DNA of 62,906 bases, filler included, from Sanchytrium tribonematis (lineage: Eukaryota), in the NCBI GenBank assembly GCA_018985235.1. It is 11 parts of 11 records of this genome, joined end to end, with 100 filler letters (N's around TTAATTAATTAA, not from the genome) between each part and the next. Parts side by side here need not be neighbours in the genome. Positions count along the whole stretch, not along the records: positions 1 to 19,640 come from JADGIG010000101.1; positions 19,741 to 22,272 come from JADGIG010001029.1; positions 22,373 to 24,900 come from JADGIG010001030.1; positions 25,001 to 27,526 come from JADGIG010001031.1; positions 27,627 to 30,147 come from JADGIG010001032.1; positions 30,248 to 32,755 come from JADGIG010001033.1; positions 32,856 to 35,361 come from JADGIG010001034.1; positions 35,462 to 37,965 come from JADGIG010001035.1; 3 more parts are not named here. One strand, written 5' to 3'. Below the pieces are notes generated by a model. The model saw only the letters and a program-made list of their open reading frames with translations, made no database searches and was not told where the DNA came from. The position numbers and the translations under genes are program-made. The stretch's first letter is position 1. Every line of letters starts with the position of its first letter. Shown piece after piece: positions 16,111-40,566 of this stretch.

Positions 16111-18022
16111 CTATGACATCATCGTGCCTTCAAAATGCTCGAGACATGTCTTAACACGCCCTCGAACATCTGCGTCAGGATCAGATAAATGAGACCTTAA
16201 CTTTTCAGAGAACCCGTATTGGCGAAGCTTTTCTGTTCTTTGAAAGCTTTCCTGCTCTTCTTGCCATGTCAAATTAATGACTGCCCACACTGCAGCAACC
16301 CTAATACTAGGCTGCTCGTGGGATATATAATTATAAAGCGCTTGTATTAATATTTCAGAAGATAGGATTGCAGATTTGTGTGTATAATTACCAGTTGCAA
16401 CATTTACGACTACATAGAGAGCCTGTTGTAAAACTGGAGTGCTGACATTTCTAACTTTGGTTTCCAATATTTGGATGAATTTTGAAGCACCTATGCCATT
16501 AAATACATCTTCTATATCCTAAATAAATCAAAATTACCTTTTCCTCCATACAAGCCAAATTACGTATTAAATTCAACGCGTGTTCCTGTACCTGTGGATC
16601 GTCCTCAAGTAAATTAGTAAGATTTGAATATGTGAGGCAAGCCATAACTCGCCTTTTTAGGTCCGTTTTAGATTGGTATACTAAATTTTTCAAAGCCCAT
16701 ATTGCATTTAATCGTAGCTTTGAATTTTTGGACTTTGATAATTCAACTAGCTTTTCAATTCCTCCATTATCAGTGACCTCATCTTTGACAGGACTAAAAT
16801 CCAAAACAATATTACAAAGTGTGGCGCAAGCTGATATTTGAACCTCTTCACTCTGATCCATGAGCAACTTTAAAATCGACTTAACTATATTTGCATCGAC
16901 GAGAGCAGTCCTGAGTGTTTTGACTGATCTAGAAAGACTTCTGGTGAGCTGACATGCAGCAGATCTAATAGATGTTCTACTGCATTCTAAAAGTCTAGAA
17001 ATGACCGATAATACTTTTGTATCAATAACACGCTTCCTACAATCCTCTCTCAAACTCGCAATTGCAGCCAAAGCTGTCAGACTAGCCTCCACATCTAGCA
17101 TTGTAGAATCTGAAGAGTCCTCTGTCCAAGTTCGAACTACGTCACTCAATTTCGGAATTGCTTCTGCTTCAGAAGCATTTTTCTGTAAATCTTCATTCCC
17201 GGCGGTGAGGTATGCTAAAACAAAAGCGGCTTTATACCCAACCTCAGTTGGAAGTAGTTTGACTAAAGTTGGCAACACTATCAAGTGTATATCTTTTGTA
17301 ATATTACTTGCCACATTTGTCGCAAACAAATTGACGATACAAGAACAAACTATAAGCTTATCGCTGTGATTTTTCATGGTTTTTACCAAAGTCAAGAGCA
17401 ACTGTATTAAATCTGTTTCTCGTTGATTTACTATGAGCTTCAAGCCAATTACGTACTTGGAAATATCTTCATTTTCTTTAATAACCGCTGCAAGGGCCTG
17501 AAGACAGGTAGATATTAGTTTCATATTATCCGATGAAAGTAGCTGTATCATTTTGTCTATGCCTCCACTTTCTGCAACAATATGCTGGTGCTGTTTCGAT
17601 CTACAAATTTTTGATAGTAATTCACAAAGAACTAAGCTCAATTTGAATGACGAACCTGTCTGAGACAATTGTAAATTATCGACGATGCTAAGAATGTTGG
17701 CTTGATTAATTGGAAAATTATGAGTGTCATAGATGCTACGCAGGCATTTGGCGCTGGCCACTTTGGTCTCTTTATTATCTACTTTGACAAATAAATCCCA
17801 AATCATTTCTGTTGCCTCGTACGAAATTTTAGCTTCTGGCATTAATAAACAAGATGAAATAAATATCAGAGTGTGTTGCAATAAATTTGGGGCTTTTTGA
17901 TTTTCTAAAGTTTTAAGCAAAGCATCAAATGTTCCATTATTAATGTATTTTAGCTTTTCAAATGGATTTCCTATGACCTTATTGCGAAGGCTTTTAATTT
18001 CTTTCTCATTTAAAATCTCCAT
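16111..18022 (-). CDS. ARMC8: Armadillo repeat protein ARMC8/Gid5 (GID/CTLH complex); two exons, intron 16519-16537
   Basis: LRNKVIGN, SLSRSVKTLRT, LCNIVLDFSP, LRLNAIWALKN; removing the 19-nt intron fuses ORFs 16499-18022 and 16111-16467 (MEEK|DIEDVF...LETKV). Confidence 0.9.
16519..16537 (-). other. 19-nt spliceosomal intron GTAATTTTGATTTATTTAG
   Basis: GT-AG; removal joins the two ARMC8 ORFs in frame. Confidence 0.9.
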
Positions 18023-18052
18023 GTGACAAAATTTATTATCTATGGTTTAAAT

Positions 18053-19640
18053 TTACTCAGACATTGTTGACGCTGTATCCCATTCAGAGTCCTCTTGAAG
18101 TTTATCAAAATTAAATTCCTCTGTTTTACATTCAAACTGTAGACTACGAAACAATTTCAATTGATTCTGAAGCTTAGCTGTTTGAAGAACAATAGTAATC
18201 GTTGATTCCATTGAAAATAATGGTAGCACATACTTTTTTAACATTTCTATAACGTCTGCTTTTTTGATTGACGGTAAACCTTCTATCGATTTTGACAAAC
18301 GATTTTTTGACGATTTTAACAAAACGGTGCGTTGAAAGCACTTAGCAGCTGCGCTTGCGAAAGTTTTCTCTTGCCGGACTTGGGAATATATTAGCGATGC
18401 TTTGGCGCCCTGAAAATGCTCATCCTCCAGTAGAGAGGGGTTATTTATATATTCAGTAACAATATTTTTACAAGCTAGATATGCATTGAATGGATCCACA
18501 CATTCCAAAATGTACAATTCTAAAAGAGAAGCTTCCACGGATCTATTTATACTACATCCATACGCTAAACCTGCTCCTCGAACTTTTCTCCAAAAAGGAC
18601 CTTCTGTCGCCTCCAGTATTTCCAAAGCTAAGGAGAGAGCCAATCTTTCGAATGAATCTAGGTGGTTTTTAAGTGAGTAGGATGCGTATAAGTAACCAGA
18701 GTCTACCACTTTGGGTGCGTAAAAGATACACTTTCCCTTTTGCAAAATTAAAAATTCTTTGTCTTTCACGGACCTTAACTCATTCGAAGCCTTGTTATTC
18801 TTAAATTTTGTAAAACTATTTAAAGCTATCTTAGAAGGCTCAGGACTTCCCTGGAAATGGAAATATGCATCGGATCCTTGTAAATTTAACAGCAAGGTTG
18901 TTAGATCCAAAATAATATCATCAGCTGGCTTCGCAAGTAGATTTGAAACCACATGGTGTTGATTAAATAACGAAAATAAAGGCCTATTCGATTTTTTAGA
19001 AAAGTTTCTATATTGAAATAAAGAATCGACCAAGTATTGGCCATCTCTTTTTAAATTTGACAGTTCCTTTTTCATTTTCTCAAGTGCGCTGTTGATACGC
19101 TCTTGATTTAAATGAAGATTAAACAGATTTTTGTATGCCCAATTAACTCCTTCATTGACCATCTCTTTTCGAACTCGAAGTCGAATATCTAAATATTCTC
19201 CAAAAAATCCTGGTTTGAACGATTCCGAATGCAATCCGCAGCCAACACCAAATTCTAAAGTTTGATCTTCTAAAGAGTTCAAAACTTCCTTTAAAGGAAT
19301 GACTTCTCCATTCAAATAGAGTTCACAATTAAATATTAAAAAAGTCAGCAAAGGCAAAAGTTGCTTGTACTTAAGATCAATTGACGAAGTGTCTATCATG
19401 ATCCGAATAGAACAAAATTCGCTTTCATATACATCCAATTGTGCAAAACCGCGAAAATCAATTGAAATTCCATCTACATAATCTTGCAAAGCATTGTTTT
19501 CAAGTCTATAGACAGAAGGAAATCTAGCAGTTTCTATTTTATAGGGTTTCACACTTAAAGTTACATTGGGAAAACTCTCAAAAAGAGACTGAGGTACAGG
19601 CCTTTCATTATTCTTAATAGCAGATTTTAATTCTTCAGCA
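18053..19640 (-). CDS. M16C-type metallopeptidase-like protein, C-terminal part (5' truncated by contig end)
   Basis: EGPFWRKVRGAGLAYG motif of PreP/M16C-like proteins; frame open to the gap. Confidence 0.75.
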
Positions 19641-19740
19641 NNNNNNNNNNNNNNNNNNNNNNNNNNNNNNNNNNNNNNNNNNNNTTAATTAATTAANNNN
19701 NNNNNNNNNNNNNNNNNNNNNNNNNNNNNNNNNNNNNNNN
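19641..19740. other. Artificial contig spacer (44 N + TTAATTAATTAA + 44 N); identical spacers at 22273-22372, 24901-25000, 27527-27626, 30148-30247, 32756-32855, 35362-35461, 37966-38065, 40567-40666, 43167-43266
   Basis: Identical 100-nt blocks with a linker giving stops in all six frames; intervening contigs decrease from 2532 to 2500 nt. Confidence 0.98.
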
Positions 19741-20248
19741 CACTCAAAACAAATTGCCTAAATATGATGCAATTGATAAGTTTGATTGTTTTATATCTTA
19801 TACTGATTAATCTGTTCTGATTTTTTCAAAGTCAATTTTATGGAAGGGGTATGCCCATAATTCAATTTTGACTTAAGGAAATGATAGATATGTAAGATTT
19901 CCATATAGTGCATCTTAATTTGGGTAAATCGAAGAAAAAGACATTTGAAGTACTTTGGATGAGTCATTTTGACTCGATTCTCCCCGTGTTTGCTCCCTTG
20001 TTCTTTTGAGTTTCTAAACAAAATGCATGTGATTATGCTTTTGAACTCATTGTTCAATGTATAAATACAGTAAGTTTAATGCAGCATAAATAATTTATTC
20101 TTTCGCGACGGTTGGAAATGGGACAAATGGAGGGGTAATTTACTTCATTTAGATTTCAATGAGTCACCTGGATTGTAGCTGTCTGTGGGGGGAGAGTATT
20201 ATGATTTTTTTCCACCCTCCTGGATGCATGATATACGGATTGAATGAG

Positions 20249-21750
20249 CTAAAGAAGCCAAACAAGTACAAATACTGTGTAATAAAAGGGGATTTGAGTG
20301 ATTTTTGACTGGTTTGCAAGTGATGCAAACAATTTTGCACTTTGTTGAAGTCGCAGAATGGATCTTCGAACAGTTACTGCATCAATAAATTCATTATGCT
20401 TATAAAAAAAGGGTTCTATGTTAATAAAACAATTTACTAAATAGTCTCTCCCTATATTGTTTTGGCGGCGTCTTGAGATCCATAAACACTCTCTCAAATG
20501 GTCTAGTTACCTGAGGAAATTGTAATTGTATTCCCAGATTCTCTGGCATTTTTGAACGTATACAAACGACTGATGCTTTCGAACTGGGATTTATTAATTA
20601 GATACTTGGAATTTTGCTTCTCCAAGAACCTACATTCCAACAACAACTCATCTAAAGCCAAAAGCACTGTATTAGAATGTTCTTGATGTTTTGGAATCCG
20701 TTTAAATGGTAAATGGTCAACTTTGTTGAGCATTTCTTTGCTAGAAACTTCTCCACCAGCATTTCCCCCAATTTTTAGCATGAAAGGAGGTAAATTGCGA
20801 GACAATACATCGGAAGGGTTTTTAGTTCCCTTAACATATACAATTTCAAAATCAAAAACAGCCATTCTTAGACACCAACGACCTAACCTGCCGAATTGTG
20901 GATTATGAAACAGCCATTTAAGTGAAATCATGTCAGAATATACGATGACTAGTGCACCAATGAGGTAGTATTTGAAATGCTCAAGTCTCAGAAGAATGGC
21001 ATATGCTTCAAGCTCATACGATTTATATTTTCGTTCCAAAGATGTAAACTTACGGCTTTCATATCCAATGGGTTGATGATTTTGCATCAAAACAAAACCC
21101 GCAGCTTCACCAGACGCATCAACATAAAGGTCAAACGGCTGTCCGAATTTGGGCTGAACTAATTGTAGATTTCTAGAGATTTCTTTTTTTATTGTATCAA
21201 ATGCTAGCTGCATTTCGCCAGTTCATATAAATGACTCGTTTGTTTTGGATATTGGTCAATGGAAGAACAATTCGAGAATACTCTGGAACAAAATCTTTGT
21301 TGTAAACACACAATCCCAGAAATGACTTCAAGGATAAGAAATTCTTCGGTGCAGCCATTTGTGTGATTTTCTCAATCTTTTCTAACTGCATAGTAATACC
21401 CGTACCACTAATGGTGTGTCCCAGCCAGATTACTTCCTCCATTCCAAACACTTTGACAACTTACAATTCATATGAAATTTTGACAATCTTTCCAACACTC
21501 TGTCCAAGCGGTCACGCAATTCTGCAACAGTATCCGCATAAATCAGTATATCGTCGATGTAATTGCAAAGTATATCACTCAGACCATCTAATATATTATC
21601 CATTAATCTCTGATTTTCCTCCGATCCACTTGCGACGCCAAATGGCAATACAGTGAATTGCTTTAATCCCAACGGAGTATTTATAATGTTATACTTTTGA
21701 TATTCAGCCCAAATCATCACTTTCAAACCACCGGGCAACACCTTGGGCAC
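20249..21750 (-). mobile_element. Decayed Ty3/Gypsy LTR retrotransposon pol fragment (RT and RNase H), frameshifted
   Basis: TPLGLKQFTVLPFGV, YIDDILIY, WLGHTIS, LKSFLGL, YVDAS...PIGYESRK...ELEAYAI...GRLGRW...SDVLSR across three frames. Confidence 0.9.
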
Positions 21751-21787
21751 TAGATTGGTTTTAATTGGATGTCTACTTTCTGGTTAA

Positions 21788-21823
21788 TAGCCATCAATGT
21801 AGCCACCAATATAGCCACTAAAT
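21788..21823 (+). repeat. Imperfect 12-bp tandem repeat x3 (TAGCCAYYAAWN)
   Basis: tagccatcaatg tagccaccaata tagccactaaat. Confidence 0.7.
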
Positions 21824-22372
21824 GGGCAATTTTTATGCGCGTTTTAAAGTAGACTTTCACAATTGACAATTCAAAAATTGTAAACATTCTACATGGTTTC
21901 TTTTTTGTTAATGCCAGAGAACGGCGTTTTTCATTATTATTCGTATTAAAGGAGTTTGCGATGAAACATCAGCATGTAAACTGCCAGGGGGGGGTATTTC
22001 ATGCTAGAATGACATTATGGTCATCATTTGTCAGATAAGCCACTGTGACAAATCCGTGTAACAACCTGTACGGTGCAACTACGAACATTAGGAATAGTCA
22101 AAAAATGACAGATTCCGTTTAAAAATTTCAAAATTTTTCATTTATTACATAATATCTAAATCTTCAAAATAAATGACTGGCTCTACATGCTTCAACAAAT
22201 AATCATAAAATTGAGTAATAATTAATATTCTGACAAGATATGAAAATGGCCTCAATTCCCAATCCAAGGAGANNNNNNNNNNNNNNNNNNNNNNNNNNNN
22301 NNNNNNNNNNNNNNNNTTAATTAATTAANNNNNNNNNNNNNNNNNNNNNNNNNNNNNNNNNNNNNNNNNNNN

Positions 22373-23240
22373 TAGAAATCAATTCCAGAGTAATGAAGTA
22401 TTCTGACTGAATGAGTCTTCCGGTATTAGTACTTTGTGACAATTTAATAGGGAAATTAATTATATTTGATATTGGAACAAGATTCAGCCTTGCACCATTT
22501 AATTCATATATCTTGCTATCTATCATCTCTGTAATTGATTTTCTTCGACTAAAATTAAACAAGCTAAACTGTGTACCACTGAAGTTTGAAGTTCTATATA
22601 ATGACAGTCTGACGGAATCAATAATCTTGGTAGAAGGATTCTGGATTTCATATTTGATAACAATAACATCGTTCATTAGATATCCTTGTTTTACGAGCAC
22701 ACATTTAAATGTAATTTTTGTTTGTAGAAATATGAGAAATCGCTGCCGTACAACAACAGAAGATTGAATTGATGTGCATAATTCTGGTGTAAGACATAGT
22801 GTGTCTAGCACCATAATATATCTTCTGTGTTTCAATTTTTTAAACTTTTTAAGCATCACTACTTCAATATAATAATTAATAGATCCAAATTCTGATTCCA
22901 TAGTTGATGGTATGTGTGCAGAGGGAATTATGTAAGTAAATTTAAATTCATGTGAACCCTTGTCCAAATCTGATTCAAATCCAAAAAAAGTTGGGTTTTC
23001 ATTTCCAAATAAAATAACCTCTTTCTCAAATATAATGTTTTTTGATCTAAAATTGCTAAATTTTGTTGAAAAGGTAGGGCCCATTAAATTGAAATGCGTT
23101 TTTTCTATTCCTTTACATTTTATCCTAAGAGAAGAGATGGTACATTTTTCCTCTAATGACACTTTAACTAAGCCACAAACTGCCTCGCCTGGATAATACG
23201 GTCTTTGAGTATCAATAATCAGATCCAAATTTATTCCCAT
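22373..23240 (-). CDS. Alpha-arrestin domain protein (3' truncated)
   Basis: YYPGEAVCGLV, LDKGSHEFKFTY.IP, PSTMESEFGSINYYI, KQGYL..D.I.I..EIQNPS. Confidence 0.85.
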
Positions 23241-23373
23241 ATTATCTCTGCAAGTTTCAGCGGAGTTCGTTTGGGTGTGCCATTATTTGGAAAGCGCAAA
23301 TCATAGTTAACGAGTAATTGAAATCAATGAAAATGGCAGAATCTAAATTCGAGAAAATACCCCAACTTTATTT

Positions 23374-24900
23374 ATGCAATTTTTCAAACGTATGATGAAT
23401 TATAAAGTGGATTTGCTATTAGATATCGAGCAGTTCATCTTCACAGGTACTGTTAAAGTCAGCGGTAATGTCAGGGAATTGAACGCCAAAAATTTAACAA
23501 TTCATAATGCGAAGTTAGAGGAGGGAAATGTTGTTTTACCAGATTCAAACGAAATTCATTTTGATGGAATCTTAAATGACCAAATGGTTGGATTCTATAG
23601 ATCAAAGCTTCCTAGTGGTGATCATATGTTTTCCACGCAAATGGAAGCACCATATTGTAGACAATGCTTTCCCTGCGCCGATAATCCTTCGGAAAAAGCA
23701 ACTTTTGACATAAGCCTTATTATTCCAGATCATTTAGAAGGATTAAGTAATATGCCAGTTTCTAAAGTCGAACCTTTTCACGGAAAATTGCATGAATATC
23801 AAAGTTTCTCTCCTAAATTTCCTTTGAAAAAGGTGACTTTCCATCAAACGCCAAAAATGTCAACATATATTTTGGCTTTTGCCGTTGGAAAGTTTTACAG
23901 AAATAGCAAACAGATTCTCTCAACAAGTGGAAAATACATCGACCTTAGCATTGTTACTCCAATTTTGGATCAGCTCAAGTCGACAGATTTTGCCATGGAA
24001 GTTTCTGAAAAATGCCTAAAATTTTTTGAAGAGTCTTTCGCAGAACCCTATCCGCTACCAAAAGTTGATATGCTTAGCGTGCCAAGTTTTGCTATGGGTG
24101 CTATGGAAAATTGGGGACTTATCACTTATCGTGAAAAAAGTCTTTTATTTGATCCCAAAACATCTGATATACATTCTAAGCAATGGGTTGCGGGAGTGAT
24201 AAATCATGAGCTGGTATTTTAAATTAATGTAGGCTCACATGTGGTTCGGCAATCTCGTGACAATGAAAGATTGGGACGATTTGTGGTTGAATGAGTCATT
24301 TGCTACTTTTATGGGAAATATGGCCTGTGAAAATGATTTTAAGGAGTGGAATATATGGACTCAATTTTTGGCCGATGAGTTTACACGAGCGCTTTCTTTA
24401 GATGCTTTAGAAAGTTCACATCCTATACATGTTCCAATTTCTAACGTCGACGAGATCGATAGTATTTTCGATGCAATAACTTATTCTAAAGGAGCTTCTT
24501 TGATTAAAATGCTCTCTAGTTGGTTGACTTTGCCAGTGTTTTTAAAAGGTGTTAAAAGTTACATTCAAGAATTCAAATATGGGAATGCTTCTGCTGACGA
24601 TCTTTGGAAACATCTTTCCGTTGCTTCTTCCAAAGACATCAAATCTTTTATGGACGGATGGATTTTACAGACTGGATATCCCCTGATCACGGTCGAGTCT
24701 CAGATCAGTGGCAATGAACTTAGCCTTGACCTAAAGCAAGAGCGATTTTATGAATTAAAAAAACAGGCATTAGGTACTGAACTATGGTGGGTCCCACTAA
24801 AAATTAAAGTCTTGTTTAAGGACGGAAGCTTTAAAACCCAGCAAGTTGTTTTTGACAAAAGGTCATCCAAATTCGATTTCAAATTCGAAAAAGAAGTCAA
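23374..24900 (+). CDS. M1 family aminopeptidase (Ape2/puromycin-sensitive type); intron 24214-24232; 3' truncated
   Basis: GFYRS, TQME..CRQCFPC.D.P, GAMENWGL; HELAH..W restored by splicing; LWLNESFA, YSKGASL. Confidence 0.95.
24214..24232 (+). other. 19-nt spliceosomal intron GTATTTTAAATTAATGTAG
   Basis: Splits the HEL|AH zinc-binding motif; contains an in-frame stop. Confidence 0.95.
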
Positions 24901-27626: not shown

Positions 27627-28525
27627 TACTGGAACATTAAATGGGCCATTCCCTGCCAATTTGACGCGATTATCATTCTCAAATAATCAATTGACTGGCA
27701 ATTTACCCCTATTGCCTCCAAAAGTAGTCAATGTATTTTTTGATTTCAATCAATTGACTGGTCCAATTCCAGCGCAATATGCAACTCAAGTAAATGGCTC
27801 GCTAGTACTTAACTCCAATGCGCTCACAGGATGCCAAAATACGACATTTGTTTGTTCTATTTGCAAATTGAGTGAAAATCGATTGCAGGGTGAATTAACC
27901 TTTAAGGCGCCTACTGTATTGAATCTGACATCCAATTTAGTCACTGATGTGAATGTCATGAATATGACTGCCATTTCTACCTGTGATTTGAGTAATAATC
28001 CAATGTTAAACACGATTTCTGCAAAATCATTCGCCAGTAAATGCAGCTCTACTAATGCGTACGCTGATCCTGGTATAAATTGTGATGTATCTACAGTTGC
28101 ATCTGCGGCAGTGCTTAGCAATAGCGACAGCAGTAGTAGCAGTAGCAACAGTGAATTGAATTTTGCTTCTTCTGTTATTTTTGTTTCTGACCTATCTAGC
28201 CTGGAAGTCGACTCAAACTCAGTGGTCACACGTATTTTGTATTCATTTAGGATCTATTTTAGGACCTAATATTGCCTCTAAAAGTGTAATAACTACACTC
28301 TCTAAAAACGTTGTAAATATCAAATCTGTGGTTTCTACTAGAATTACTAGCTTACATATCACCAGCTTGATCAAATGGGAGGGTAAATCAGAGCTAGAAG
28401 CCATTCAATTCAAATATTTAATGTTGGTCAAATTGGGCATCAATTTAATATTTATTGGAATTATTTTGGCCAAGTTGCCATACAAGAGAGATGCTACAAG
28501 ATTGTCAATGTTTAGTAAATTTTAG
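27627..28525 (+). CDS. LRR protein with Ser-rich stalk and C-terminal TM helix (5' truncated; intron 28232-28250)
   Basis: Plant-type LRR units NxLTGxLP; splicing joins to a frame ending LMLVKLGINLIFIGIILAKLP. Confidence 0.75.
28232..28250 (+). other. 19-nt spliceosomal intron GTATTTTGTATTCATTTAG
   Basis: GT-AG; joins ORF 27661 to the TM-encoding frame ending 28525. Confidence 0.8.
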
Positions 28526-28544: not shown

Positions 28545-29413
28545 TTAATCAATTGATTTGTGATGACCAGGGAATATAAAATATTTACATGCTTTTAAAA
28601 ATCTGTCATCTTCTTTCACTCTATGAATTAGAATAGTCGTTGGTGTAAACGGATGTGACCAGCTTCCCTTGTTATCACCCTTAAAATCTGGAGAATCATA
28701 AAACTACATAAAAATGAATTTACATCTTCATCTTCAGATATGAAATGTTTAATCTTATTGCCGTGTTTTAACCAACTAGCCAGTAATCCGTCTTCTTGTC
28801 CAACAATATGCTGTCTCGCATACTCATCCTTTGCGATAAAATCAACTAGATCCCAACTTAATAAATAGCCCATTCCTGCTTGGAATATGGTCCCTTTGAC
28901 GTGTCTACCATAATAAACACCAGTAAAATCACTACCCACTTCTTTTTTCAATTTATTAATACGGCTAATGAGATTATATAAATGAAGAAACACGTCATCA
29001 TCTGTTTTAAACAACATTTCATATTTTAAATTGAGAGATGCCCATTTCACGAATGAATATGTCTTGCCATCATCTAAATTCTCTTCTATATCCATTACAA
29101 TAATATCATTGTAAAGAGAAGATTCCATATCTAGTAAATTCTGTTCAAATTCATTTTTGGGTTTACCAAATATAAATTTGACCGTCATTCCAGCTGGAAT
29201 ATCTCGCATATAACAATTTCTAATTAATGATCTGCGCTCATATTTGCTGATCATGGTTAAAATACCAACAAAGATTGTATTTGGACCAGAATTGGATTGA
29301 TGATGGATAACAGATTGATGTGTGGGTTGCTGGCCATCTTTATTGGTGACTAATAATAGTAAAACCAAGATGATAATACCATAAGCATAGAATTTAAAAG
29401 ATTCTCTTTTCAT
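28545..29413 (-). CDS. GT31 beta-1,3-glycosyltransferase (type II membrane); intron 28704-28723
   Basis: N-terminal TM, RRSLIR, EENLDDGKTY, KTDDD, GMGYLLSWDLV, QEDG; spliced tail FYDSP...WSHPF..TILIHRVK. Confidence 0.85.
28704..28723 (-). other. 20-nt spliceosomal intron GTAAATTCATTTTTATGTAG
   Basis: GT-AG; removal restores a GT31-like C-terminal HxxK-type motif. Confidence 0.85.
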
Positions 29414-30247: not shown

Positions 30248-30612
30248 TATACTAAAATTGTGTAATTCTACAGTCTGCTTTAGCAGAAATGGATGCGATC
30301 CCGTTACAACCACTAAATTGAGCACGAGTACGAAATCAGTAACGCGTTCTAAAACTTGGGGTAATACATGGGACTCAAATGATGACGAAGACGGCAATGT
30401 AACTCTTATTTATTTAGCAAGAAGACTGCGCAACTGCTGTCAACAACAATTCTACCATGACAACCACGAAAACAGTGAATTATGAAGCCATCAAGCAGAG
30501 TTATTCAGCGTTACAAAGCATGTCTTCCATTGATGCTGCACAAGCTACCCATGCCAACAGCGGCAATCATTTATTGATGATCTTGTATTTGATTCTGTTA
30601 ATGTTGTTTTAG
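30248..30612 (+). CDS. 3' end of putative GPI-anchored surface protein, paralog 1 (intron 30399-30417)
   Basis: Spliced tail KTVNYEAIKQSYSA...HANSGNHLLMILYLILLMLF nearly identical to paralog 2. Confidence 0.75.
30399..30417 (+). other. 19-nt spliceosomal intron GTAACTCTTATTTATTTAG
   Basis: GT-AG; restores the frame conserved with the paralog. Confidence 0.85.
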
Positions 30613-30781
30613 TAAATATATTTATGGAGAAGTGAAACGAAGTCTTTTCATTTACTGGTACTCATATTTAAAATCATCCAATTTTTGTATAACTAGTCAT
30701 ATATATGCACATGTCAAACTTTATATTCCATAAATTCAAAATTCTCTCTCAATGTGGCTTTATTCTTGAGTTTCTGTTAAC

Positions 30782-31925
30782 ATGGGACAAACTGAGTCAA
30801 CGTGTATCAATAATGACAAACCTGACTATTTCTTAATAAGTTCCAATTCCACAACGTATGATCGCGTCAATTACATTGATCCCACTAGTAATTGCACCTA
30901 TAAAATGTATTTTGACTATGATTCTGACAAGAAGATCCAAGAGCCTCATCTAGCTTTTTTTTACTCTAAAAGAGAGTATCCTTTAGGTAATTACACGCGT
31001 CAACAATTAAAAGATGGTGTTTCTATTGAATTACCTGAAAGTGAGGTTACTGACTTTGTATTTGACTTTAAGACGACTTTAAAGAGTTTTGAGTCATTTG
31101 AAGTCGCCATTAAAAGAATGGATGTTTGCAGAACAAAAGATGGTTCTACAATCTGTTATGGTGCGCATTATTGCCCTCCATTAACGAATCAAACAGTCAT
31201 AAATACGAAATGTCAGAAATATCCAATTACGGAATATATTATAGAGCCACTCGATACAAAAGTCAAGAGACAAGTCACTCCATACTACTATGAAGGCTAT
31301 TACACTAAAATATTCTTTAGTGATTTCGGATTACCCGATTTAATGGTCAATCAAAAATTCACCATTTATACGTCTTTAAATGCCCCACAACCATTTGATG
31401 AAGTCCAAATTAAACGGGGTGGCCCTAATAACAATGGATATGATACCCATACCAAATGGTGGATGGAAACATATGGTGTTGATATCGAAGGCAATTCTCA
31501 ATATAATATGACGTATTTCTATATTGGTACGCATCAGAATATCAGTGCAGTCGTAAATAGTGTTAAATTATGTAATTCAACCCATTGTTTCACCAAACAT
31601 GGCTGTGGAAATCCAACAACTACGAATTCTCTCAAAATGACGAGTACGCAAAGTAAAACATGGAGTAAATCATGGATGGACCAAGAAAATGATGACAATG
31701 AGGATGGTAATGATACTGTAAATCATGCTTATTTAGGTTAATTGTACGACTACTTCCAATTCAACCACTGCAATGGCCAAAACAGTGAATTATGAAGCGA
31801 TTAAACAGAGTTATTCTGCTTATTTGCAGAGCATGTCATCTATGGATGCAGCACAACCAACACATGCCAATAGTGGAAATCATTTAATGATGACCCTGTA
31901 TTTAATCATGTTGATGTTGTTTTAA
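30782..31925 (+). CDS. Putative GPI-anchored Cys-containing surface protein, paralog 2 (intron 31718-31736)
   Basis: 319-codon exon 1; spliced hydrophobic C-terminus NHLMMTLYLIMLMLF. Confidence 0.75.
31718..31736 (+). other. 19-nt spliceosomal intron GTAAATCATGCTTATTTAG
   Basis: GT-AG; restores the frame conserved with the paralog. Confidence 0.85.
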
Positions 31926-32103
31926 GTCAGAAAATGATGAAATTGTACATAATAAACTATATAAGAATCTAATTGTATTAATTCAACTTGTGCATCACCT
32001 GTTGCATGAACACGCTATTCTGCATCATTTGATTGGTGTCCCTGATTGGCTCTGACAGTATTTATTGCCATCATCAAACAAATCGCTCAAAACACCCCTG
32101 AAA

Positions 32104-32755
32104 ATGTATCCCGGTCAACAAAGATTACAAAAACAAAAAGAGAAACAACAACAGCAACCCAATACTGCATATCCATCAAATCAATACACCAATCCACCTG
32201 CTTATCAACAACCTTTTACACAAATGCCACCCAATCCTCCAATGAATTCTCCAATGCATCAACAGGGTTATCAACAAAATTATCCCCCTCAGAATCATCA
32301 ACAAGGTTATCCACAAGCGTATCCACAACAGAATTATCCACCTCAACAACCATATCCTGCGCAACAACCCTATAATGCGTATCCCCCTCAACCCTATCCA
32401 CAACAACAACAAGGATATCCCGTACAGCAACCTGTTCAACAACCGTATCCACCTCAACAACCCGTTCATCAGCAATATCCGCCTCAATATCCCCCTCAAC
32501 AATCCAATCCTTCTATCCCACCAGCTGCCACAGTCCACCAACACACCGCATTTACAGATAATGTGCGTGTATCAGGCAATAAAAAGGCATTATTAATTGG
32601 CATCAATTATTTCAAACAGCAAGGCCAATTAAAAGGATGTATTCAAGATGTCACCAATATCAAGCAATTTTTACTCCAAATCTACAAATTCAATCCATCC
32701 AACATGTTAATACTGACAGATGATCAATCTAATCCAAAATACATTCCTACTCGTC
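32104..32755 (+). CDS. MCA1: Type I metacaspase with Q/P/Y-rich prodomain (3' truncated)
   Basis: KKALLIGINYF, LKGCIQDV, ILTDDQ..P...PTR. Confidence 0.93.
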
Positions 32756-32855
32756 NNNNNNNNNNNNNNNNNNNNNNNNNNNNNNNNNNNNNNNNNNNNT
32801 TAATTAATTAANNNNNNNNNNNNNNNNNNNNNNNNNNNNNNNNNNNNNNNNNNNN

Positions 32856-33101
32856 GCATGTTTCGTCCCTCTTGTTTAGTGAAGGATTGTCGCATGAGTC
32901 TGGATTGACAATTTTGGCTTGATTTAATGCAGCTGTAAGCCAGTCTTTGCATGTAATAGGAATATCGCCAGTTAACTGTGATTTGTCAGTGGGACATTTT
33001 GCTGCTATCATGGCTTTATGAAATGCTTTTATTTGCTTTCCCATTGCTTTATATGAATTAGCAGAGTGTGCAATGCACAGAATGACAAATAAGTAGATCA
33101 T
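32856..33101 (-). CDS. Small secreted Cys-containing protein (3' truncated)
   Basis: MIYLFVILCIAHS signal-like start. Confidence 0.5.
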
Positions 33102-33268
33102 TTGCTAAAAATGGGACATTTGGCATTTTAAATAAAAAATGATGCCATTTATGGAACATGTGATTGAAATGACGAATATTACAAGTTTCCAATATTTTAA
33201 TTTATTTCTCTTTTGATTCGCAAATAGACGCCATTACTATCAACCCTATCATAAAATTACCAAATTTA

Positions 33269-33844
33269 TTAAATCAAATTGTATGTGGATGCATTCTCTC
33301 CATTAGATTCAATCGTATCATCAAAATATCCACCCAATTTATCCTCGGGTACCAATTTCACAACAATCCCCAAAATAGTCCCAAAAACACTTAAAATGAA
33401 TATTTTATATGGTTCTATATGATGTACAGACCATTTAATATATAATTCATTATCTGGTGATACAATAAACACATAAACTAAATAAGAAATCATAGAAGTC
33501 AATAAATGGCAAATTACAGCTAATTTTGCAGTTGAAACTTGATCTTCTCGTTCTTTCTTTTCATCTACATCTTCGTTATAAACAGGTGGTTTAAATAGTT
33601 TACCATAATAAAATGCAAAATAGCAGTGGCCATTTTTATCTTTTTTGCAAATGACGCCCAAAAATGAACAAATAAAGCCAATCAAGCTAGCCACGCCAAT
33701 AACTACATATTTGTATGTCAAATCATCACTTTGAGTTTGAAATGCAGAGATGGATGTGTACATGGCAATGCTATTCCCTGCTGCATATCTTTTAACCAAT
33801 TTTAATGCATCTGAGTCATCTTCCCATTGCACTGCAGATGTCAT
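33269..33844 (-). CDS. Hypothetical membrane protein (about 3 TM segments)
   Basis: Hydrophobic helices in a ~190-aa ORF; first ATG gives MTSAVQW. Confidence 0.55.
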   Translation of the reverse strand: MTSAVQWEDDSDALKLVKRYAAGNSIAMYTSISAFQTQSDDLTYKYVVIGVASLIGFICSFLGVICKKDKNGHCYFAFYYGKLFKPPVYNEDVDEKKEREDQVSTAKLAVICHLLTSMISYLVYVFIVSPDNELYIKWSVHHIEPYKIFILSVFGTILGIVVKLVPEDKLGGYFDDTIESNGENASTYNLI

Positions 33845-33989
33845 TTCTACAAATGGCAACGCGCTTCATAAATCATGGCAAATAGACGCCACGTTATTCC
33901 AGCTGGATGGCTCATTGGTTATCAAATTATCGCCAAATGGCAATGAAAGACGATTCGAATATAGAGTGAATTTTTAAATGAAATTTAAT

Positions 33990-34964
33990 TTATTGCAAAT
34001 CTAATGAAGACAAGTAATGCTCACAATCTAATGCAGCCATGCATCCAGTTCCAGCAGCAGTAATAGCTTGTCTATATTTCTTATCTGCCACATCTCCACT
34101 CGCAAATAAACCTGGCACATTCGTATGGGTGCCATGTACTTTAATATATCCATCTTCATCTAATTCCACTAATGAATTAAGCCATTTCGTGTTTGGAACA
34201 TGTCCAATTGCATAAAATAAGCCATTGACACTCAAATCTCTTGTTTTTTGAGTTTGTGTGTCCATTAATGTCAATTTTTGTAATAATTTACCATTGCCAT
34301 CGCATTTGATGGGTGCTGTGTTCCATAAAACTTCAATTTTCTTATTTTTAAACACTCTTTCTTGCATGACTTTGGAGGCTCTAAATTCATTTCTACGGAC
34401 TAGCATATACACCTTAGATGCATATTTAGTGAGGAACGTAGCTTCTTCACAGGCTGAATCACCTCCACCGACTACTGCTAATTCTACATTTCTAAAAATG
34501 GGGCTGGCACCATCACAAACAGCGCACGCAGAAATGCCTTTTTGCCAATAAACATCTTCACCGGGTAAAAATAACCTTTTGGCAGTTGCACCAGTAGCCA
34601 CAATGACTGAATGTGCTTGAATTTCTTCATTTTCTTCATTTTTAAGAATAAAAATATCATTCTTTTTTGTAATGGACGTGATTGTCTCAGTAATGACTTC
34701 TGTGCCATTATGGATAGATTGCTCTCTAAATTTATCAGTGAGTGCCATTCCGGATATAGTAATATGCCCTGGGAAATTTTCTACTTCCGTAGTTGTTGTT
34801 AGTTGGCCTCCTGCTGCGATGCCACTAGCAAGAAATCCCTCATATAAAACTGGCTTTAGCATGGCTCTAGAGGTGTAAATAGCTGCTGTGTGCGCAGATG
34901 GACCACTTCCGACGATAACTACTTTGTGAATCGTGGACATGGATTTTGCAAATTGTTTGAGCAT
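33990..34964 (-). CDS. TRR1: Thioredoxin reductase (low-molecular-weight fungal type)
   Basis: GSGPSAHTAAIY, GGQLTTTTEVENFPG, SACAVCDG, GGGDSACEEA, GDV.D..YRQAITAAG. Confidence 0.97.
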   Translation of the reverse strand: MLKQFAKSMSTIHKVVIVGSGPSAHTAAIYTSRAMLKPVLYEGFLASGIAAGGQLTTTTEVENFPGHITISGMALTDKFREQSIHNGTEVITETITSITKKNDIFILKNEENEEIQAHSVIVATGATAKRLFLPGEDVYWQKGISACAVCDGASPIFRNVELAVVGGGDSACEEATFLTKYASKVYMLVRRNEFRASKVMQERVFKNKKIEVLWNTAPIKCDGNGKLLQKLTLMDTQTQKTRDLSVNGLFYAIGHVPNTKWLNSLVELDEDGYIKVHGTHTNVPGLFASGDVADKKYRQAITAAGTGCMAALDCEHYLSSLDLQ

Positions 34965-35138
34965 ATCTCCTTTTAAATGATTATTTTTTACAGATTTGGA
35001 ATATGATGCTTTGGGAGATGGGATCGAGGACGACACATGAATATGAGCTATTAAACTAATCACACTATAAAAAACAGCATAATACCAATCAAATTAAAAG
35101 GCATTAAAATTAAAAAGACGGCCACTCTCACATTTGAA

Positions 35139-35361
35139 ATGAAGTTACAGTATATAAAAGATTTGAAGAATCCTCACACATATGATCCAACAAGAAAAGA
35201 TATGTATTTGTTTTACTACATCAACAACGGAATGAAACTATCGAAAGTAGAAGAAGAAAAACTTCAAAAGCATTGGAATTTAAAGACAAAAGGATATACG
35301 TACCGCGTTGTTACTGAGTGCCATGAGAGACTAGAATTTAATAGATCTGCAAATCCAATTG
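35139..35361 (+). CDS. Hypothetical protein (3' truncated)
   Basis: ATG-initiated ORF open to the gap. Confidence 0.35.
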
Positions 35362-35461
35362 NNNNNNNNNNNNNNNNNNNNNNNNNNNNNNNNNNNNNNN
35401 NNNNNTTAATTAATTAANNNNNNNNNNNNNNNNNNNNNNNNNNNNNNNNNNNNNNNNNNNN

Positions 35462-36034
35462 ATGTATTTACAACCCGATGTTCAAGAAAAAATTCTTTCT
35501 GAGTTTTCAAATCAGGGCCACATGCTCTTATCAAATTTTCTCCTGTCTGAAAAATTTGAAACCCTGAAAAAAGAATCAGATTCAATACAATGGGAGCATC
35601 AAGGGCCACTTAATATAAAAAACTATTATCGCGGTGCAAATTTACCGCCAGTCTGTAGAGAGTTTCAGACATTGCTATCTCTAATTCAATTTAAAGACTT
35701 CTTGAATATTTTGACTGGAATGGACAGCCGAATATCGCTAAATGAAAGTTGTAGGCAATTCAAATTTGGAAATTACAAGCTTTTAAGAGACGACCAATTA
35801 GAAGTATGTGGTATAGATCTGGAATATTATCTAACCACTTCATCTGCTTGCACAACTTATTGTACAATGGACTGTGAATTGATATCTATTGAACCACAAA
35901 GCAATTCATTGTCTCTAGTTTACCGGGACGAGGGGGTGATGAGATGTGTAAATTGCAATACTGGACATGGTAGGATTGATTTTGTGGGGACATACAATGA
36001 AATTTCACCTGAAGATTCTGATATGGAAGAATAA
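35462..36034 (+). CDS. OGFOD1: Prolyl hydroxylase Tpa1/OGFOD1, C-terminal domain (5' truncated)
   Basis: W...GP.....Y, FLNILTG, CRQFKFGNY.L, ELISIEP..NSLSLVYRD. Confidence 0.75.
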   Translation: MYLQPDVQEKILSEFSNQGHMLLSNFLLSEKFETLKKESDSIQWEHQGPLNIKNYYRGANLPPVCREFQTLLSLIQFKDFLNILTGMDSRISLNESCRQFKFGNYKLLRDDQLEVCGIDLEYYLTTSSACTTYCTMDCELISIEPQSNSLSLVYRDEGVMRCVNCNTGHGRIDFVGTYNEISPEDSDMEE

Positions 36035-36060
36035 AATTTTAGTTTTAAAAAAAATTTGAA

Positions 36061-36537
36061 ATGAAGAAAATTTTATTCCCAAAAGAGCTCTGGGATGACA
36101 TCATAAAGAAGTCATATCATCCAGAAGAAATTTCGCAACTTAGGATGTACAAGGTTGGAGTAAGATTAAATAGAACTCTTTATTTCCCTTTTAAAGATTT
36201 ATTCGATATGAAGGATATTTACATATTTAGGAATCAAATAGTTATTGTAAAACCACTTGGAAAGGACTTGTGTGATTATTGCAAAATAGTTATGCGTATT
36301 ATTTCTGTGGATGACCCAAAAGAGCATTATCCTTATCTTAAGCTCATAGGAAAGCTGTGCCATTCATGTGCTTGTAACATCCAGAATTGCAACCAGAGTA
36401 AAAAGAAAACTCTTAACAATATAAATTGCAAGGCATGCATGCCAATATTGAAGAGCCTTAATTCATTTCTGGGACCACAGGCATCATACGCTGTTTACTG
36501 CGAAATAGAATCTGAATTGACAAAGATTAGTAATTGA
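36061..36537 (+). CDS. Hypothetical Cys-rich protein
   Basis: 158-aa ORF with several CxxC pairs. Confidence 0.5.
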   Translation: MKKILFPKELWDDIIKKSYHPEEISQLRMYKVGVRLNRTLYFPFKDLFDMKDIYIFRNQIVIVKPLGKDLCDYCKIVMRIISVDDPKEHYPYLKLIGKLCHSCACNIQNCNQSKKKTLNNINCKACMPILKSLNSFLGPQASYAVYCEIESELTKISN

Positions 36538-36585
36538 ATAAATTCAAATTCCGAGACTACAAATTTGTCAAAATACCCCGTGAGG

Positions 36586-37812
36586 ATGCACCCTTTTGCG
36601 CAATGGCTGTCTTCTCAATCCTTGGACTTTAACTCATTATATCAAGATAAATTCTCTTGTCTTGGAATGCTTAAATTATTTCCGCAAGAAGATCAAGTTC
36701 TAATACTTCAATTGTTATTCTTGAATGATCCTATCGCGAAAGATGTTAACAATTCTGCTCTGATTGATCTTTGTATAATAAAAAAGAGCGTAAAAGATGA
36801 GAAAATGGTTTTGCTGAATCCCTTATACCAGCAAAATTTAAGAAAGATTTTGGTGCAACCGACTCTTTTAGATGCAATTAATTCTAATACTGAAGTATAT
36901 GATCATGCAAATGATAGACTCAATGAAATACTGCAGTCTTTGGTAAAAAGCAATACGTCAAAAATGAAAAACAGCATACGAATTCTAATGAAAAATGCTG
37001 AATTGATTTCTAAAGACTCTATTACAAACAAAGGATTCCAATTTTTATTGCAAACTACATCGCTCCAATACTGGTCATTGATTCAAGTTTATTTGAAGTT
37101 AGCAACGACTGAAATGCACCTAGTGTTATTAGACGTTGTCAAATTTATTTTTCTCTTAACTCTATTAGAGCCAGGTAAAGGTTTCAACTCGAGTGCTCTG
37201 ACCAAGACTCAAACCGCAATACTGGATGACTTCCACACATTAGGATTGTGTTATTACGATAAAGAAGCGCATCTATTTTACCCTACACAATTTACCACTT
37301 GTCTTTTAAAAGAAATCTCGCACACCAACACAGACTCTAAATTCATTATAATAGAGACTAACTTTAAGATATATGCATATACGGAAAGTGAGCTACAAAA
37401 GTCTATTCTAAAATTATTTATACATATGAAAACAGAGTTTAAAAACATGGTTGCTGGTCAACTTTCTAGAGATAGCGTACGAACTGCTCTCAATTGCGGT
37501 ATTAGTGCGAACCAAATTGTCGATTATCTATCGACTCACTGCCATCAACTAATGAATTCTGACCTTCCGATGAATATAAAAGACCAATTGTATCTGTGGG
37601 AACAAGAAAGAGACAGGCTTATTTCTTATAACGGGTTTCTTTACTCGGACTTTCCCAGTTCACAGCTGTACAAAAGCACGTTAGAATACGCTACAAGAAT
37701 GAATGTTTTGATCTGGAGCAATATAAATGACAGATTAATGTTTATACAAGATACAGGACACGATTTAATGAAACAATTCATAACAAATGAACAGTCCAGG
37801 CTGACAAATTAA
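36586..37812 (+). CDS. TFB2: TFIIH subunit Tfb2/p52
   Basis: ITNKGFQFLL, FIIIETNFKIYAYT, RDSVR.AL..GISANQI, DQLYLWEQERDRL, GFLYSDF. Confidence 0.95.
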   Translation: MHPFAQWLSSQSLDFNSLYQDKFSCLGMLKLFPQEDQVLILQLLFLNDPIAKDVNNSALIDLCIIKKSVKDEKMVLLNPLYQQNLRKILVQPTLLDAINSNTEVYDHANDRLNEILQSLVKSNTSKMKNSIRILMKNAELISKDSITNKGFQFLLQTTSLQYWSLIQVYLKLATTEMHLVLLDVVKFIFLLTLLEPGKGFNSSALTKTQTAILDDFHTLGLCYYDKEAHLFYPTQFTTCLLKEISHTNTDSKFIIIETNFKIYAYTESELQKSILKLFIHMKTEFKNMVAGQLSRDSVRTALNCGISANQIVDYLSTHCHQLMNSDLPMNIKDQLYLWEQERDRLISYNGFLYSDFPSSQLYKSTLEYATRMNVLIWSNINDRLMFIQDTGHDLMKQFITNEQSRLTN

Positions 37813-37889
37813 TAAATCAATTATTCAAATATGGTCTAATGTTTTGACTAATTAATAAATCAATTATTCAAATATGGTATAATGTTTTG
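37807..37889 (+). repeat. Tandem duplication, 43-bp period (40-bp units, 1 mismatch)
   Basis: aattaataaatcaattattcaaatatggt(c/a)taatgttttg at 37807-37846 and 37850-37889. Confidence 0.9.
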
Positions 37890-37965
37890 CGAAATAAGAA
37901 TCCTTATTTCGTCATGAACTAGTTCCAACGAAGAATCATCATTAGAGTCGAGGGCTAATTTTCTG
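37860..37965 (-). CDS. 3' end of an unidentified gene (5' truncated)
   Basis: Open frame RKLALDS...IIPYLNN-TGA from the contig end. Confidence 0.4.
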
Positions 37966-38065
37966 NNNNNNNNNNNNNNNNNNNNNNNNNNNNNNNNNNN
38001 NNNNNNNNNTTAATTAATTAANNNNNNNNNNNNNNNNNNNNNNNNNNNNNNNNNNNNNNNNNNNN

Positions 38066-38239
38066 ATATTTACAGATTGTCTCTAGCAATTCGTACTTTT
38101 TTGCATAATTTTGCTGCCATGTCATCCTATCTGAAAGTGACAAAGTCGAGATTGCTCGATTAAATTGCTGACTGTTCAACTTGAGTTTCTGTTGATTCGA
38201 AAATAATGATAAATTAAGTTCCTTGTAATATTGCGACAT
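38066..38239 (-). CDS. Hypothetical protein (3' truncated)
   Basis: ATG ORF open to the gap. Confidence 0.35.
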
Positions 38240-38388
38240 ACGATTTTCAATAAAATTGTTTTAAAAATTTCTTCTTAAATCTCGAACCTAATTTGCAGAC
38301 AAACAAAGTAGAGCAAGTGACACAAATTTGGAATGAATTTATTTAAAAAGTTAAAAAACTGTATGATTGAAATTCTATAATGCTGTTA

Positions 38389-38943
38389 CTAGTCATCCTT
38401 TTCTTTGTTAAAAAATTGAAAAACAACACGAATGATGCTGATTAGATATACTATTGAAATCCAAATGGGATCCTTGTACCATAATAATTTTCGACCACTG
38501 GCATGTTTTCTGCATTTCCGAGCCAAATTCTGAAAAGATCTCAAATCTTTCATGAAATAAAATCTAATAAAGAAGTAAATATAAACATCAAGGTTTAAAC
38601 TGCTGTACTCTATAATATCAAGTAATGCGCCTTGATGTCTATACAAGAATTCAATATACATTTCCTCGTCGACAATATTTAATTCATGTGGCAAATTCAG
38701 TAGTTCGTTTCCATACAGTTTTAATAATGAATAAATGATGAGACCATTGGCAATTGTCCCACCGAATCTACCACTTGAAAGAGTTTGAAACGACTGAAAT
38801 TCTTTGTTGCCTTTTTGTAATATAAAATTGTAAAAATCTTCATCAGCCTCCTCTTTTTCTGCAAAATTAGTGACGTCGTAATCAAAAGATTCATCGTAGG
38901 TATGATCTATTGATATTTTACCATTAGGGATCAGCAAAATCAT
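38389..38943 (-). CDS. Hypothetical protein with C-terminal TM helix
   Basis: 184-aa ORF; hydrophobic tail IWISIVYLISII. Confidence 0.5.
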   Translation of the reverse strand: MILLIPNGKISIDHTYDESFDYDVTNFAEKEEADEDFYNFILQKGNKEFQSFQTLSSGRFGGTIANGLIIYSLLKLYGNELLNLPHELNIVDEEMYIEFLYRHQGALLDIIEYSSLNLDVYIYFFIRFYFMKDLRSFQNLARKCRKHASGRKLLWYKDPIWISIVYLISIIRVVFQFFNKEKDD

Positions 38944-39177
38944 ACGAAGTTTGTTTTGAAAAATATTCTGATGAATAAAAGCTCTAATAAATTTATTTGG
39001 TATCTAGAAATTTTGGGAAATCGTCCTTGATCAGTTTAAGAAAAAGCGTAGCCAAGATCAGCGTCGTCTCCATGTGATCTTTTAAGTGATCTGTTACATG
39101 ACTCAATTTGCCAAATGTGTCAAAGAGGAGATATTAGGAGAAGCTTAAAAGCGGATTGTTCCCTTTAAATTTCAAAC

Positions 39178-40566
39178 ATGACCTTTCACTCAGACTCAGA
39201 AGATGATCAGCCTAAGCTGTTGCGTGTTGATTCAAGAATGAACAGAAGAGCATCAATGAAATCAAACCTAAGCCATATGACAAAAGAAGAATTTATTTGG
39301 GAGGACAAGGATGAAGAACTACAGCATTCTAGACTAACCAAATGGATTCCGGTCATATCTGTAGTTATTTTGCCGATTTTTCTGGTTCCATATTTTGTTG
39401 GAATTGGAATGGGAGATTTAAGTACGTTTGATAATTCCAAAAATCCTAAAATTGAATCTTCTGATAGTTCAGTAGGCGATCTCAATTCAAATGGTATAGT
39501 TGTATCTCAGGAACTGATGAGATGGGGAATTTGGCTTACTAGTATTTATAGCATTTTTGTTGTAAGTTGGGTTTCTCTCCATTTTTTACCATTTATTTTT
39601 TATAAATTATATATCCTGGTCACTAAGCGTAAATCTGAACGATTCAAAGACTTATTCGAATATTTAAGAGCTTTAAGGAGATACATTATTTGGCTTTGTA
39701 TCGCAATTTGTAGCAACATCGTTTACGAGGTTCTTTGGAACACCCTAAATAGAGGGGGGGATGACAGGGCTGCACCAAATTATATCGTAATTATTTCTTA
39801 CCTTTTAAGAATATTTGTATTCTATAGTATTTTCAGACTTGGTGAAAAATTGTTAATGATGGTTTTGTTTATACATTTAAAGCATAAGACTTTCAAGGAT
39901 AGGATAGAGGCATCCAAAGTTGCACTTAAAACAATAGAACATTTGGAAGTTCAACTTGATAGATCACACGATTGGAAAGAAAACAAGAATCGTTTGTTGA
40001 ATGAAGGAAGCAAACTATTTTCGTGGATCAAAAGTGGACAAGTTAACGAAATGGATATAACCTCAGACATAAATGCCAAGAGATTAGCCAAAAAATTGTT
40101 CACAAGTTTATCTAAAGACAAACAGATCATCAGGCCTGATGATTTTTATCCTTATTTTTCAGATGTCGAAACTTCCATGGATGCATTTTATTTGTTCGAC
40201 AGGGACAGAAATGGAGATATTAGTAAGAGTGAAATGAAGACAGCCATCACTTCAATTTATCAAGAAAGAAGATTTATTTTGAGTTCTTTTAAAGACATTA
40301 ATGATGTTGTCAAAAAATTGGATCGAATTCTCTTTACTATAGTTTGCATTATTACAATTGTTTACGGCTTCACTGTATTTGGCAACAATGTCCTCGCAGC
40401 TGCAGTCCCTTTACTAAGTGGATCATTGGCTTTAAGCTTCATGTTTGCGGAAACCGCAAAAGAGTTTTTTAATTCTTTATTATTTTTATTTGGAACTCAT
40501 CCTTTTGATTCTGGTACTAATTATTAATTCAGGCGACATTATTATGATCAAAGACGTTTATTATCG
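39178..40566 (+). CDS. MscS-like mechanosensitive channel with EF-hand (Msy1/2-like); intron 40514-40532; 3' truncated
   Basis: Multiple TMs, AKRLAKKLF, EF-hand FDRDRNGDISKSE, SFMF, HPFDSG|D restored by splicing. Confidence 0.9.
40514..40532 (+). other. 19-nt spliceosomal intron GTACTAATTATTAATTCAG
   Basis: Removal restores the MscS motif HPFDxGD and removes a stop. Confidence 0.9.

Follow-up and report, generated by a model that had tools for sequence, protein, structure and literature searches.

Very short spliceosomal introns have been described in several eukaryotic lineages. In the ciliate Stentor coeruleus they are reported as 15 to 16 nucleotides (nt) long, with the branch adenosine at position 10 in the 15-nt and position 11 in the 16-nt introns, that is, at −6 from the 3′ end, leaving a 5-nt tail (PMC9505925). 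Reported lengths are 18 to 21 nt in chlorarachniophyte nucleomorphs (PMC10245619, PMC2483917), 16 to 17 nt in mikrocytids (PMC10245619) and 22 to 76 nt in the microsporidian E. cuniculi (PMC3629993, PMC6349667), and medians of 22 to 27 nt are given for myxozoans, 22 nt being the shortest animal median intron reported there (PMC13644364). Here we analyze a stretch of 62,906 nt from the genome of Sanchytrium tribonematis (GenBank assembly GCA_018985235.1; hereafter the window), in which seven GT…AG inserts of 19 or 20 nt interrupt genes. These inserts are very probably genuine U2-type introns, which would have shrunk to 19 to 21 bases in sanchytrids and are predicted to be excised by way of a branch A at −6.

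Compared with the described systems, the window introns share with Stentor a GUA start, AU richness and a −6 branch A (predicted here) with a 5-nt tail, but the stretch between the 5′ site and the branch is four bases longer, the host is a fungus, the origin is independent and the introns are far fewer. The nucleomorph introns belong to the same length class; they reside, however, in an intron-rich relic nucleus and are reported without a branch-point signature, whereas the sanchytrid introns reside in the main nucleus of an intron-poor organism and carry a fixed signature. Mikrocytids are likewise reduced parasites with few introns of narrow size range and conserved sequence, but they are rhizarians in which only 17 to 19 spliceosomal proteins were identified (PMC10245619), as against the 32 of 39 probes matched in the sanchytrid Amoeboradix gromovi (see below). 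Microsporidia, also intron-poor parasites with a constrained intron 3′ end, are the closest relatives with short introns; these are described as often poorly spliced (PMC6349667), and by analogy the sanchytrid introns may be poorly spliced too. Myxozoans and dicyemids represent convergent shortening in opisthokont parasites with ancestral positions kept, but they are animals with longer introns and weakened splice motifs (PMC13644364). Finally, Yarrowia lipolytica is a fungus that anchors its branch point just upstream of the AG, in contrast within long introns (median 204 nt; PMC2483917). An earlier note on this DNA had named the ciliates and nucleomorphs as precedents, a list that omitted the mikrocytids, microsporidia, myxozoans (median 22 nt) and dicyemids.

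A length of 19 nt lies below the fungal and animal values in the accessible text of PMC2483917, PMC6349667, PMC10245619, PMC8476143, PMC10711555, PMC3629993, PMC10459994 and PMC13644364. No description of sanchytrid introns was found in the literature within reach, which excluded subscription journals and parts of the genome paper's supplement, and the available text of the two published sanchytrid papers contains the word "intron" only in a reference title. The feature is probably undescribed so far, tiny introns as a phenomenon being already known elsewhere.

Seven Short Inserts Interrupt Genes of the Window

Eleven contig pieces make up the window, separated from one another by an N44-TTAATTAATTAA-N44 linker (the first joint at 19641-19740 and nine more up to 43266); pieces that flank such an artificial linker are not genomic neighbors. 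The seven inserts are spread over five of the eleven pieces. Each begins with GT, and more precisely with GTA, and ends with AG on the gene strand, which is the minus strand for 16519-16537 and 28704-28723 and the plus strand for the other five; six are 19 nt long and one is 20 nt. Re-reading of the sequence reproduced the coordinates, lengths and distribution over five pieces that the earlier note had given. The inserts and their host genes are as follows, X1 being a public DNA run that is possibly the window's own source.

16519-16537, minus strand: ARMC8/GID5 intron; 19 nt, GT-AG, phase 0; predicted branch A at 16524; evidence from homolog junction, X1 contig and a break common to relatives.
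16111-18022, minus strand: ARMC8/GID5 gene; exon 1 at 16538-18022, exon 2 at 16111-16518.
24214-24232, plus strand: M1 aminopeptidase intron; 19 nt, phase 0, inside the HEXXH zinc motif; predicted branch A at 24227; evidence from homolog junction.
23377-24900, plus strand: M1 aminopeptidase gene, ending at the contig edge; Pfam Peptidase_M1.
28232-28250, plus strand: intron of a leucine-rich repeat (LRR)-like protein; 19 nt, phase 1; predicted branch A at 28245; evidence from frame and codon score.
28704-28723, minus strand: intron of a beta-1,3-galactosyltransferase-family gene (28545-29413); 20 nt, phase 0; predicted branch A at 28709; evidence from frame and codon score.
30399-30417, plus strand: intron of tandem paralog 1 (gene 30249-30612, start lost at the contig end); 19 nt, phase 0; predicted branch A at 30412; evidence from paralog alignment.
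31718-31736, plus strand: intron of tandem paralog 2 (gene 30782-31925); 19 nt, phase 0; predicted branch A at 31731; evidence from paralog alignment.
40514-40532, plus strand: intron of an MscS-like channel gene (39178-40566, ending at the contig edge); 19 nt, phase 1; predicted branch A at 40527; evidence from homolog junction.

Left unspliced, every host gene soon meets a stop or the wrong frame past the insert. Removal of the inserts restores junctions that homologs recognize. When alignments spanning the spliced junction were examined for gaps within 8 or fewer residues on each side, the junction was gap-free in 77 of 92 spanning homologs for ARMC8 (109 matches), in 196 of 202 for the M1 peptidase (240 matches) and in 111 of 115 for MscS (150 matches). 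The Pfam Peptidase_M1 profile is likewise shared out between the exons, positions 1-76 coming from exon 1 and 76-218 from exon 2. In the tandem paralogs a 19-nt insert stands at corresponding alignment positions in both copies, just before a conserved tail, and the middles of the two inserts have diverged while their 3′ ends are alike. When the second exons were scored with a codon model built from 14 other open reading frames (ORFs), the spliced frame had the best codon-usage score in all seven cases, marginally so for MscS (11 codons). The spliced second exons of the LRR-like and galactosyltransferase genes are stop-free over 90 and 52 codons, respectively, the former being appended as a tail that bears a hydrophobic segment; a search of the galactosyltransferase exon 2 against PDB returned non-significant matches only. 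By type of support, three junctions have homologs, two a paralog alignment and two frame and codon score. The earlier claim that each removal rejoins a split reading frame therefore stands by codon score for all seven, with homologs adding to it for ARMC8, M1 and MscS and the conserved tails for the paralogs, and stands by frame and codon usage for the LRR-like and galactosyltransferase genes.

The ARMC8 insert is also present, with 0 differences and at a depth of 157, in a contig of the X1 run, which makes an assembly slip unlikely for this one insert. The same run shows two-allele bubbles at 11806-11917 and 15706-15820 and 15 single-base differences across 10 kb, which suggests heterozygosity or a mixed population.

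The Inserts Share a 3′ Signature with a Predicted Branch Adenosine

Alignment of the inserts at their 3′ ends reveals a common pattern that the earlier note had not mentioned, YTNATNYAG, in 7/7: a pyrimidine (Y) at −9, T at −8, A at −6, T at −5 and a terminal YAG. The invariant A at −6 has a p of about 9e-5 before correction for the number of positions inspected (interior A 26%), and the T and Y columns are weak singly (p 0.03-0.07). A scan of the window for this motif found 6 matches at 19 nt, compared with a mean of 1.05 and a maximum of 5 in 100 Markov simulations. It produced no further 19- to 20-nt candidates, and other lengths between 13 and 40 nt gave 0 to 4 matches where about 1.2 were expected. 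Those at other lengths were discounted because they were antisense, in frame within intact domains or at chance level. Among them, an 18-nt in-frame match at 2191-2208 lies in an actin-like gene whose Pfam match spans 5-409 of 410 in one ORF, and a second 18-nt match (20135-20152) is without a conserved gene. Another candidate, of 25/28 nt (7975-8002), would on removal join two genes that are distinct. The minor, U12-type intron class was considered as well, but its RTATCCTT 5′ site and TCCTTAAC branch motif occur in none of the seven inserts.

The most probable mechanism is ordinary two-step U2-type splicing acting on a minimal substrate. U1 and U6 would read the GTA at the 5′ site, and U2, pairing weakly with a branch region rich in U, would bulge the −6 A, which, by analogy with Stentor, would serve as the branch nucleophile. 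The resulting lariat would comprise a 14- to 15-nt loop and a 5-nt tail, too short a distance from branch A to AG to accommodate a polypyrimidine tract, and the AG would be chosen by a fixed short distance, 5 nt past the branch. The constant feature looks to be this branch-to-AG spacing rather than total length. Indeed, "length-fixed," as the introns had been called, describes the 19 to 20 nt of the window and is slightly too strong for the relatives, which fit 19, 20 and 21 nt.

The Window Derives from a Sanchytrid, and Related Proteins Break at the Same Codon

The best matches to ARMC8 exon 1 are 70, 67 and 64% identical, and the rest are at or below 43% among the top-ranked matches. The 67% match is A. 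gromovi (EukProt EP00835), and the 70% and 64% matches are ENA proteins. In a quick single-gene tree of 27 rows chosen from 120, with no blastoclad included, the window ARMC8 and these three close matches form one side of a long branch with an SH-like approximate likelihood-ratio test (SH-aLRT) value of 100. For MscS, once the window's own entry is set aside, A. gromovi again provides the best match (60%). The GC content of the window is 33%, compared with about 35% published for sanchytrids, and its thioredoxin reductase is of the low-molecular-weight type. On these sequence comparisons the source, a little-studied parasite of algae, is a sanchytrid fungus other than A. gromovi. The pieces with the LRR-like and galactosyltransferase genes and with the paralogs are tied to it taxonomically by GC content and the shared intron signature, and searches for M1 homologs, within length limits, found no close sanchytrid ortholog. 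The fungal placement supports an origin separate from the ciliates and nucleomorphs, as the earlier description of the introns as independently miniaturized had supposed.

In the public protein set the window's own ARMC8 (P0121, 507 amino acids), M1 (P0391, 282 amino acids) and MscS (P0241, 449 amino acids) are unspliced, truncated read-throughs, in line with the expectation that default gene finding would mis-annotate such genes. The ARMC8 proteins of the relatives, P0122, P0123 and P0124/P0240, end 4 to 8 residues past the same codon as P0121, and their tails begin with Val (GT). We back-translated these read-through peptides and inferred the intron lengths from them. For P0122, 19 nt is the sole length below 26 that allows an AG followed by the next Asp codon, and the full signature fits; P0123 fits 20 nt, and a 21-nt intron ending in an in-frame TAG fits both P0124 and P0243, a paralog of MscS in A. 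gromovi. In simulations of 200,000 long AT-rich introns, 0.026% gave a full fit at 19 nt and 6.3% gave some fit at 19 to 21 nt, and among distant read-throughs 2 of 11 fitted 19 to 21 nt, both with very short tails. Taken together, the peptides argue strongly for an ultra-short ARMC8 intron in one relative (P0122), and modestly to weakly in the others. Two scans of metagenome contigs for relatives yielded no locus.

For MscS, the A. gromovi ortholog P0242 reads straight across the window's junction, which confirms the spliced MscS sequence and indicates that the intron is absent from this ortholog. With P0243, it points to a possible intron loss and one-base slide within sanchytrids.

None of the seven window introns has a length that is a multiple of three, and the inferred 21-nt introns of P0124 and P0243 end in an in-frame stop. 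Introns that break the frame or add a stop can reflect selection for the decay of unspliced transcripts. The lengths and stops seen here fit such selection, with the detection bias that applies to introns found in this way.

At Least Two Intron Positions Look Old

Nine of the 83 ARMC8 homologs that carry the anchor motif end shortly after it, five of them sanchytrid-like and four distant, and in all of them Val occupies the same codon. In the quick tree, three of the distant fragments group with the chytrid Kappamyces. Among MscS homologs, 16 of 124 end shortly after the motif, and 7 (by eye) read through after the same phase-1 Gly. Because the ARMC8 and MscS positions are common to distant homologs, at least two of the window introns look like old introns that then shrank. 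We infer a history in which most introns would have been lost, and those that remained, two or more of them at old positions, would have been worn down to a physical minimum as the genome became compact.

The density of about 0.17 introns per kb (7 in 41.8 kb of coding DNA, over 35 hand-bounded gene pieces) compares with published values of 1.30 for Allomyces, 3.93 for chytrids and 0.01 for microsporidia (PMC8476143). No longer intron surfaced in these pieces, as had been stated earlier: the remaining conserved genes have their Pfam domains in single ORFs and motif matches at other lengths are near chance, within the roughly 42 kb of coding DNA covered.

Several neighboring features were observed. 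Across 1-19640 genes are tightly packed, with convergent ends 5 nt apart (7179/7185 and 16105/16111), and most conserved genes are intronless. Degenerate retroelement remains occupy 20503-21222 and 47954-50780, comprising long terminal repeat-type RNase H and reverse transcriptase (minus strand) and a broken RVT_1 region that looks non-long terminal repeat. Lineage-specific-looking surface or secreted proteins include the tandem paralogs at 30249-31925, whose hydrophobic C-terminal tail is reached only once spliced, and, in the regions 27628-28525, 41938-43166 and 57499-60186, LRR-like proteins with Ser/Thr stalks and a related ORF pair with hydrophobic N-termini, one with ankyrin repeats.

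Alternative Explanations

Several observations weigh against genuine introns of uniformly minimal length. The sample is seven introns in about 42 kb of coding DNA, detected because frames break, and the introns are known at the level of DNA and protein sequence. The motif scan is circular, the motif having been taken from the same introns. An unbiased frame-rescue scan (any GT…AG of 12 to 30 nt) gave 11 candidates at 19 nt against 2 to 10 elsewhere, with no clear peak, and at its thresholds recovered three of the seven inserts; since frame rescue alone is not beyond chance, the case for introns rests on homology and the shared signature. The LRR-like and galactosyltransferase junctions lack homolog support, and the M1 intron shows no shared position among homologs (6 of 209 with short tails, none clearly matching). 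In the relatives, the lengths come from back-translated peptides rather than DNA. P0123 (4 residues) and P0124 are weak alone, because 6.3% of simulated long introns fit 19 to 21 nt; longer introns are compatible with the P0123, P0124 and P0243 peptides; and the P0243 break lies one base off the window's MscS site.

Some of these points bear most directly on a reading in which the introns are real but form the short tail of a broader distribution, with longer ones elsewhere in the genome. The sample of seven in the window and four inferred in relatives is small, three of the peptides leave room for longer introns, and E. cuniculi is reported to keep a 76-nt intron beside short ones (PMC6349667). 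Against this, all seven window introns, on five independent contig pieces, measure 19 to 20 nt, the 35 gene pieces yielded none that is longer, and at the old ARMC8 position the intron is tiny in two or more genomes with proteins 69-70% alike; we regard a broad distribution as unlikely.

A reading of the inserts as damage to genes in decay, or as faults of assembly, would gain from the fact that the evidence is DNA and protein sequence, with read support for one of the five pieces. Such accidents would hardly place GT…AG ends and a −6 A in 7/7 inserts, restore conserved motifs exactly on removal and leave the exon 2 frames intact and well-scoring. The same break, moreover, occurs in three related genomes and at positions common to distant homologs, and the ARMC8 insert shows 0 differences in the X1 contig, so that damage or misassembly is very improbable. 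Removal or bypass without a spliceosome (DNA elimination, ribosome hopping or endonuclease-type splicing) could appeal to a length below reported fungal sizes and to the core factors unannotated in A. gromovi, but is the least credible of all, given the canonical GT-AG ends, the branch-like A, positions common to distant homologs, the annotation of most spliceosome factors and X1 contigs over 9500-19600 that contain no joined DNA form (contigs drop rare forms).

Most Probed Spliceosome Factors Are Annotated in A. gromovi

Spliceosomal excision of the 19- to 21-nt introns, which we favor, would require a corresponding machinery. An Rfam search of the window gave no match. Protein factors were sought in the published eggNOG table of A. 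gromovi (PMC8371127, supplementary file 4) by names and by KEGG and KOG identifiers; matching rows were inspected for part of the probes, and counts only were taken for the rest. Among the 39 factors, 32 were matched, including Prp8, Brr2, SF3B1, U2AF1/2, the branch-point binding protein (BBP), U1-70K, Prp40 and Luc7, and this count does not show the remodeled spliceosome that had been thought probable. The same 39 probes gave no match for Slu7, Prp18, U1C, Prp39, Prp28, Prp19 and SF3B6. Prp19 and Prp28 are core splicing factors. Their absence from the same file indicates that the table has false negatives, and we therefore do not accept the absence of Slu7 and Prp18 as proof of loss but take it as a lead only. 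BBP itself appears in the file (rows 1135-1136) as two neighboring ORFs of a single contig, probably because of an unmodeled intron.

The lead has a parallel in Stentor, whose published factor table likewise gives Slu7 and Prp18 as not found (PMC9505925). In yeast both proteins are reported to be dispensable when the distance between branch and 3′ site is short, and Prp18 has been proposed to set the minimum distance (PMC10711555), so that their possible loss in sanchytrids constitutes a sharp prediction. A broader proposal, which we put forward tentatively and consider somewhat less likely to hold than to fail, is that sanchytrids phylum-wide have the shortest opisthokont introns (mode 19 nt) and share a heterotrich-like solution, combining the −6 branch A with Slu7/Prp18 loss in an otherwise near-complete fungal spliceosome. 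If true, it would narrow the changes that lower the minimum intron size to a small set open to testing.

Implications

The published sanchytrid proteomes are described as having been called with TransDecoder on genomic contigs, with no splice model (PMC8371127), and intron-bearing genes would consequently be truncated or split in EukProt-derived datasets. Such genes can lead to overcounting of gene losses and of lineage-specific proteins. For splicing itself, the introns of the window would mean that introns below 22 nt arose independently within Fungi, the kingdom to which the main splicing model organisms belong, and the fungal host would allow direct comparison with yeast spliceosome structures. 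That a branch A at −6, predicted in a fungus, recurs in a ciliate suggests that 3′ splice-site geometry has a physical lower limit.

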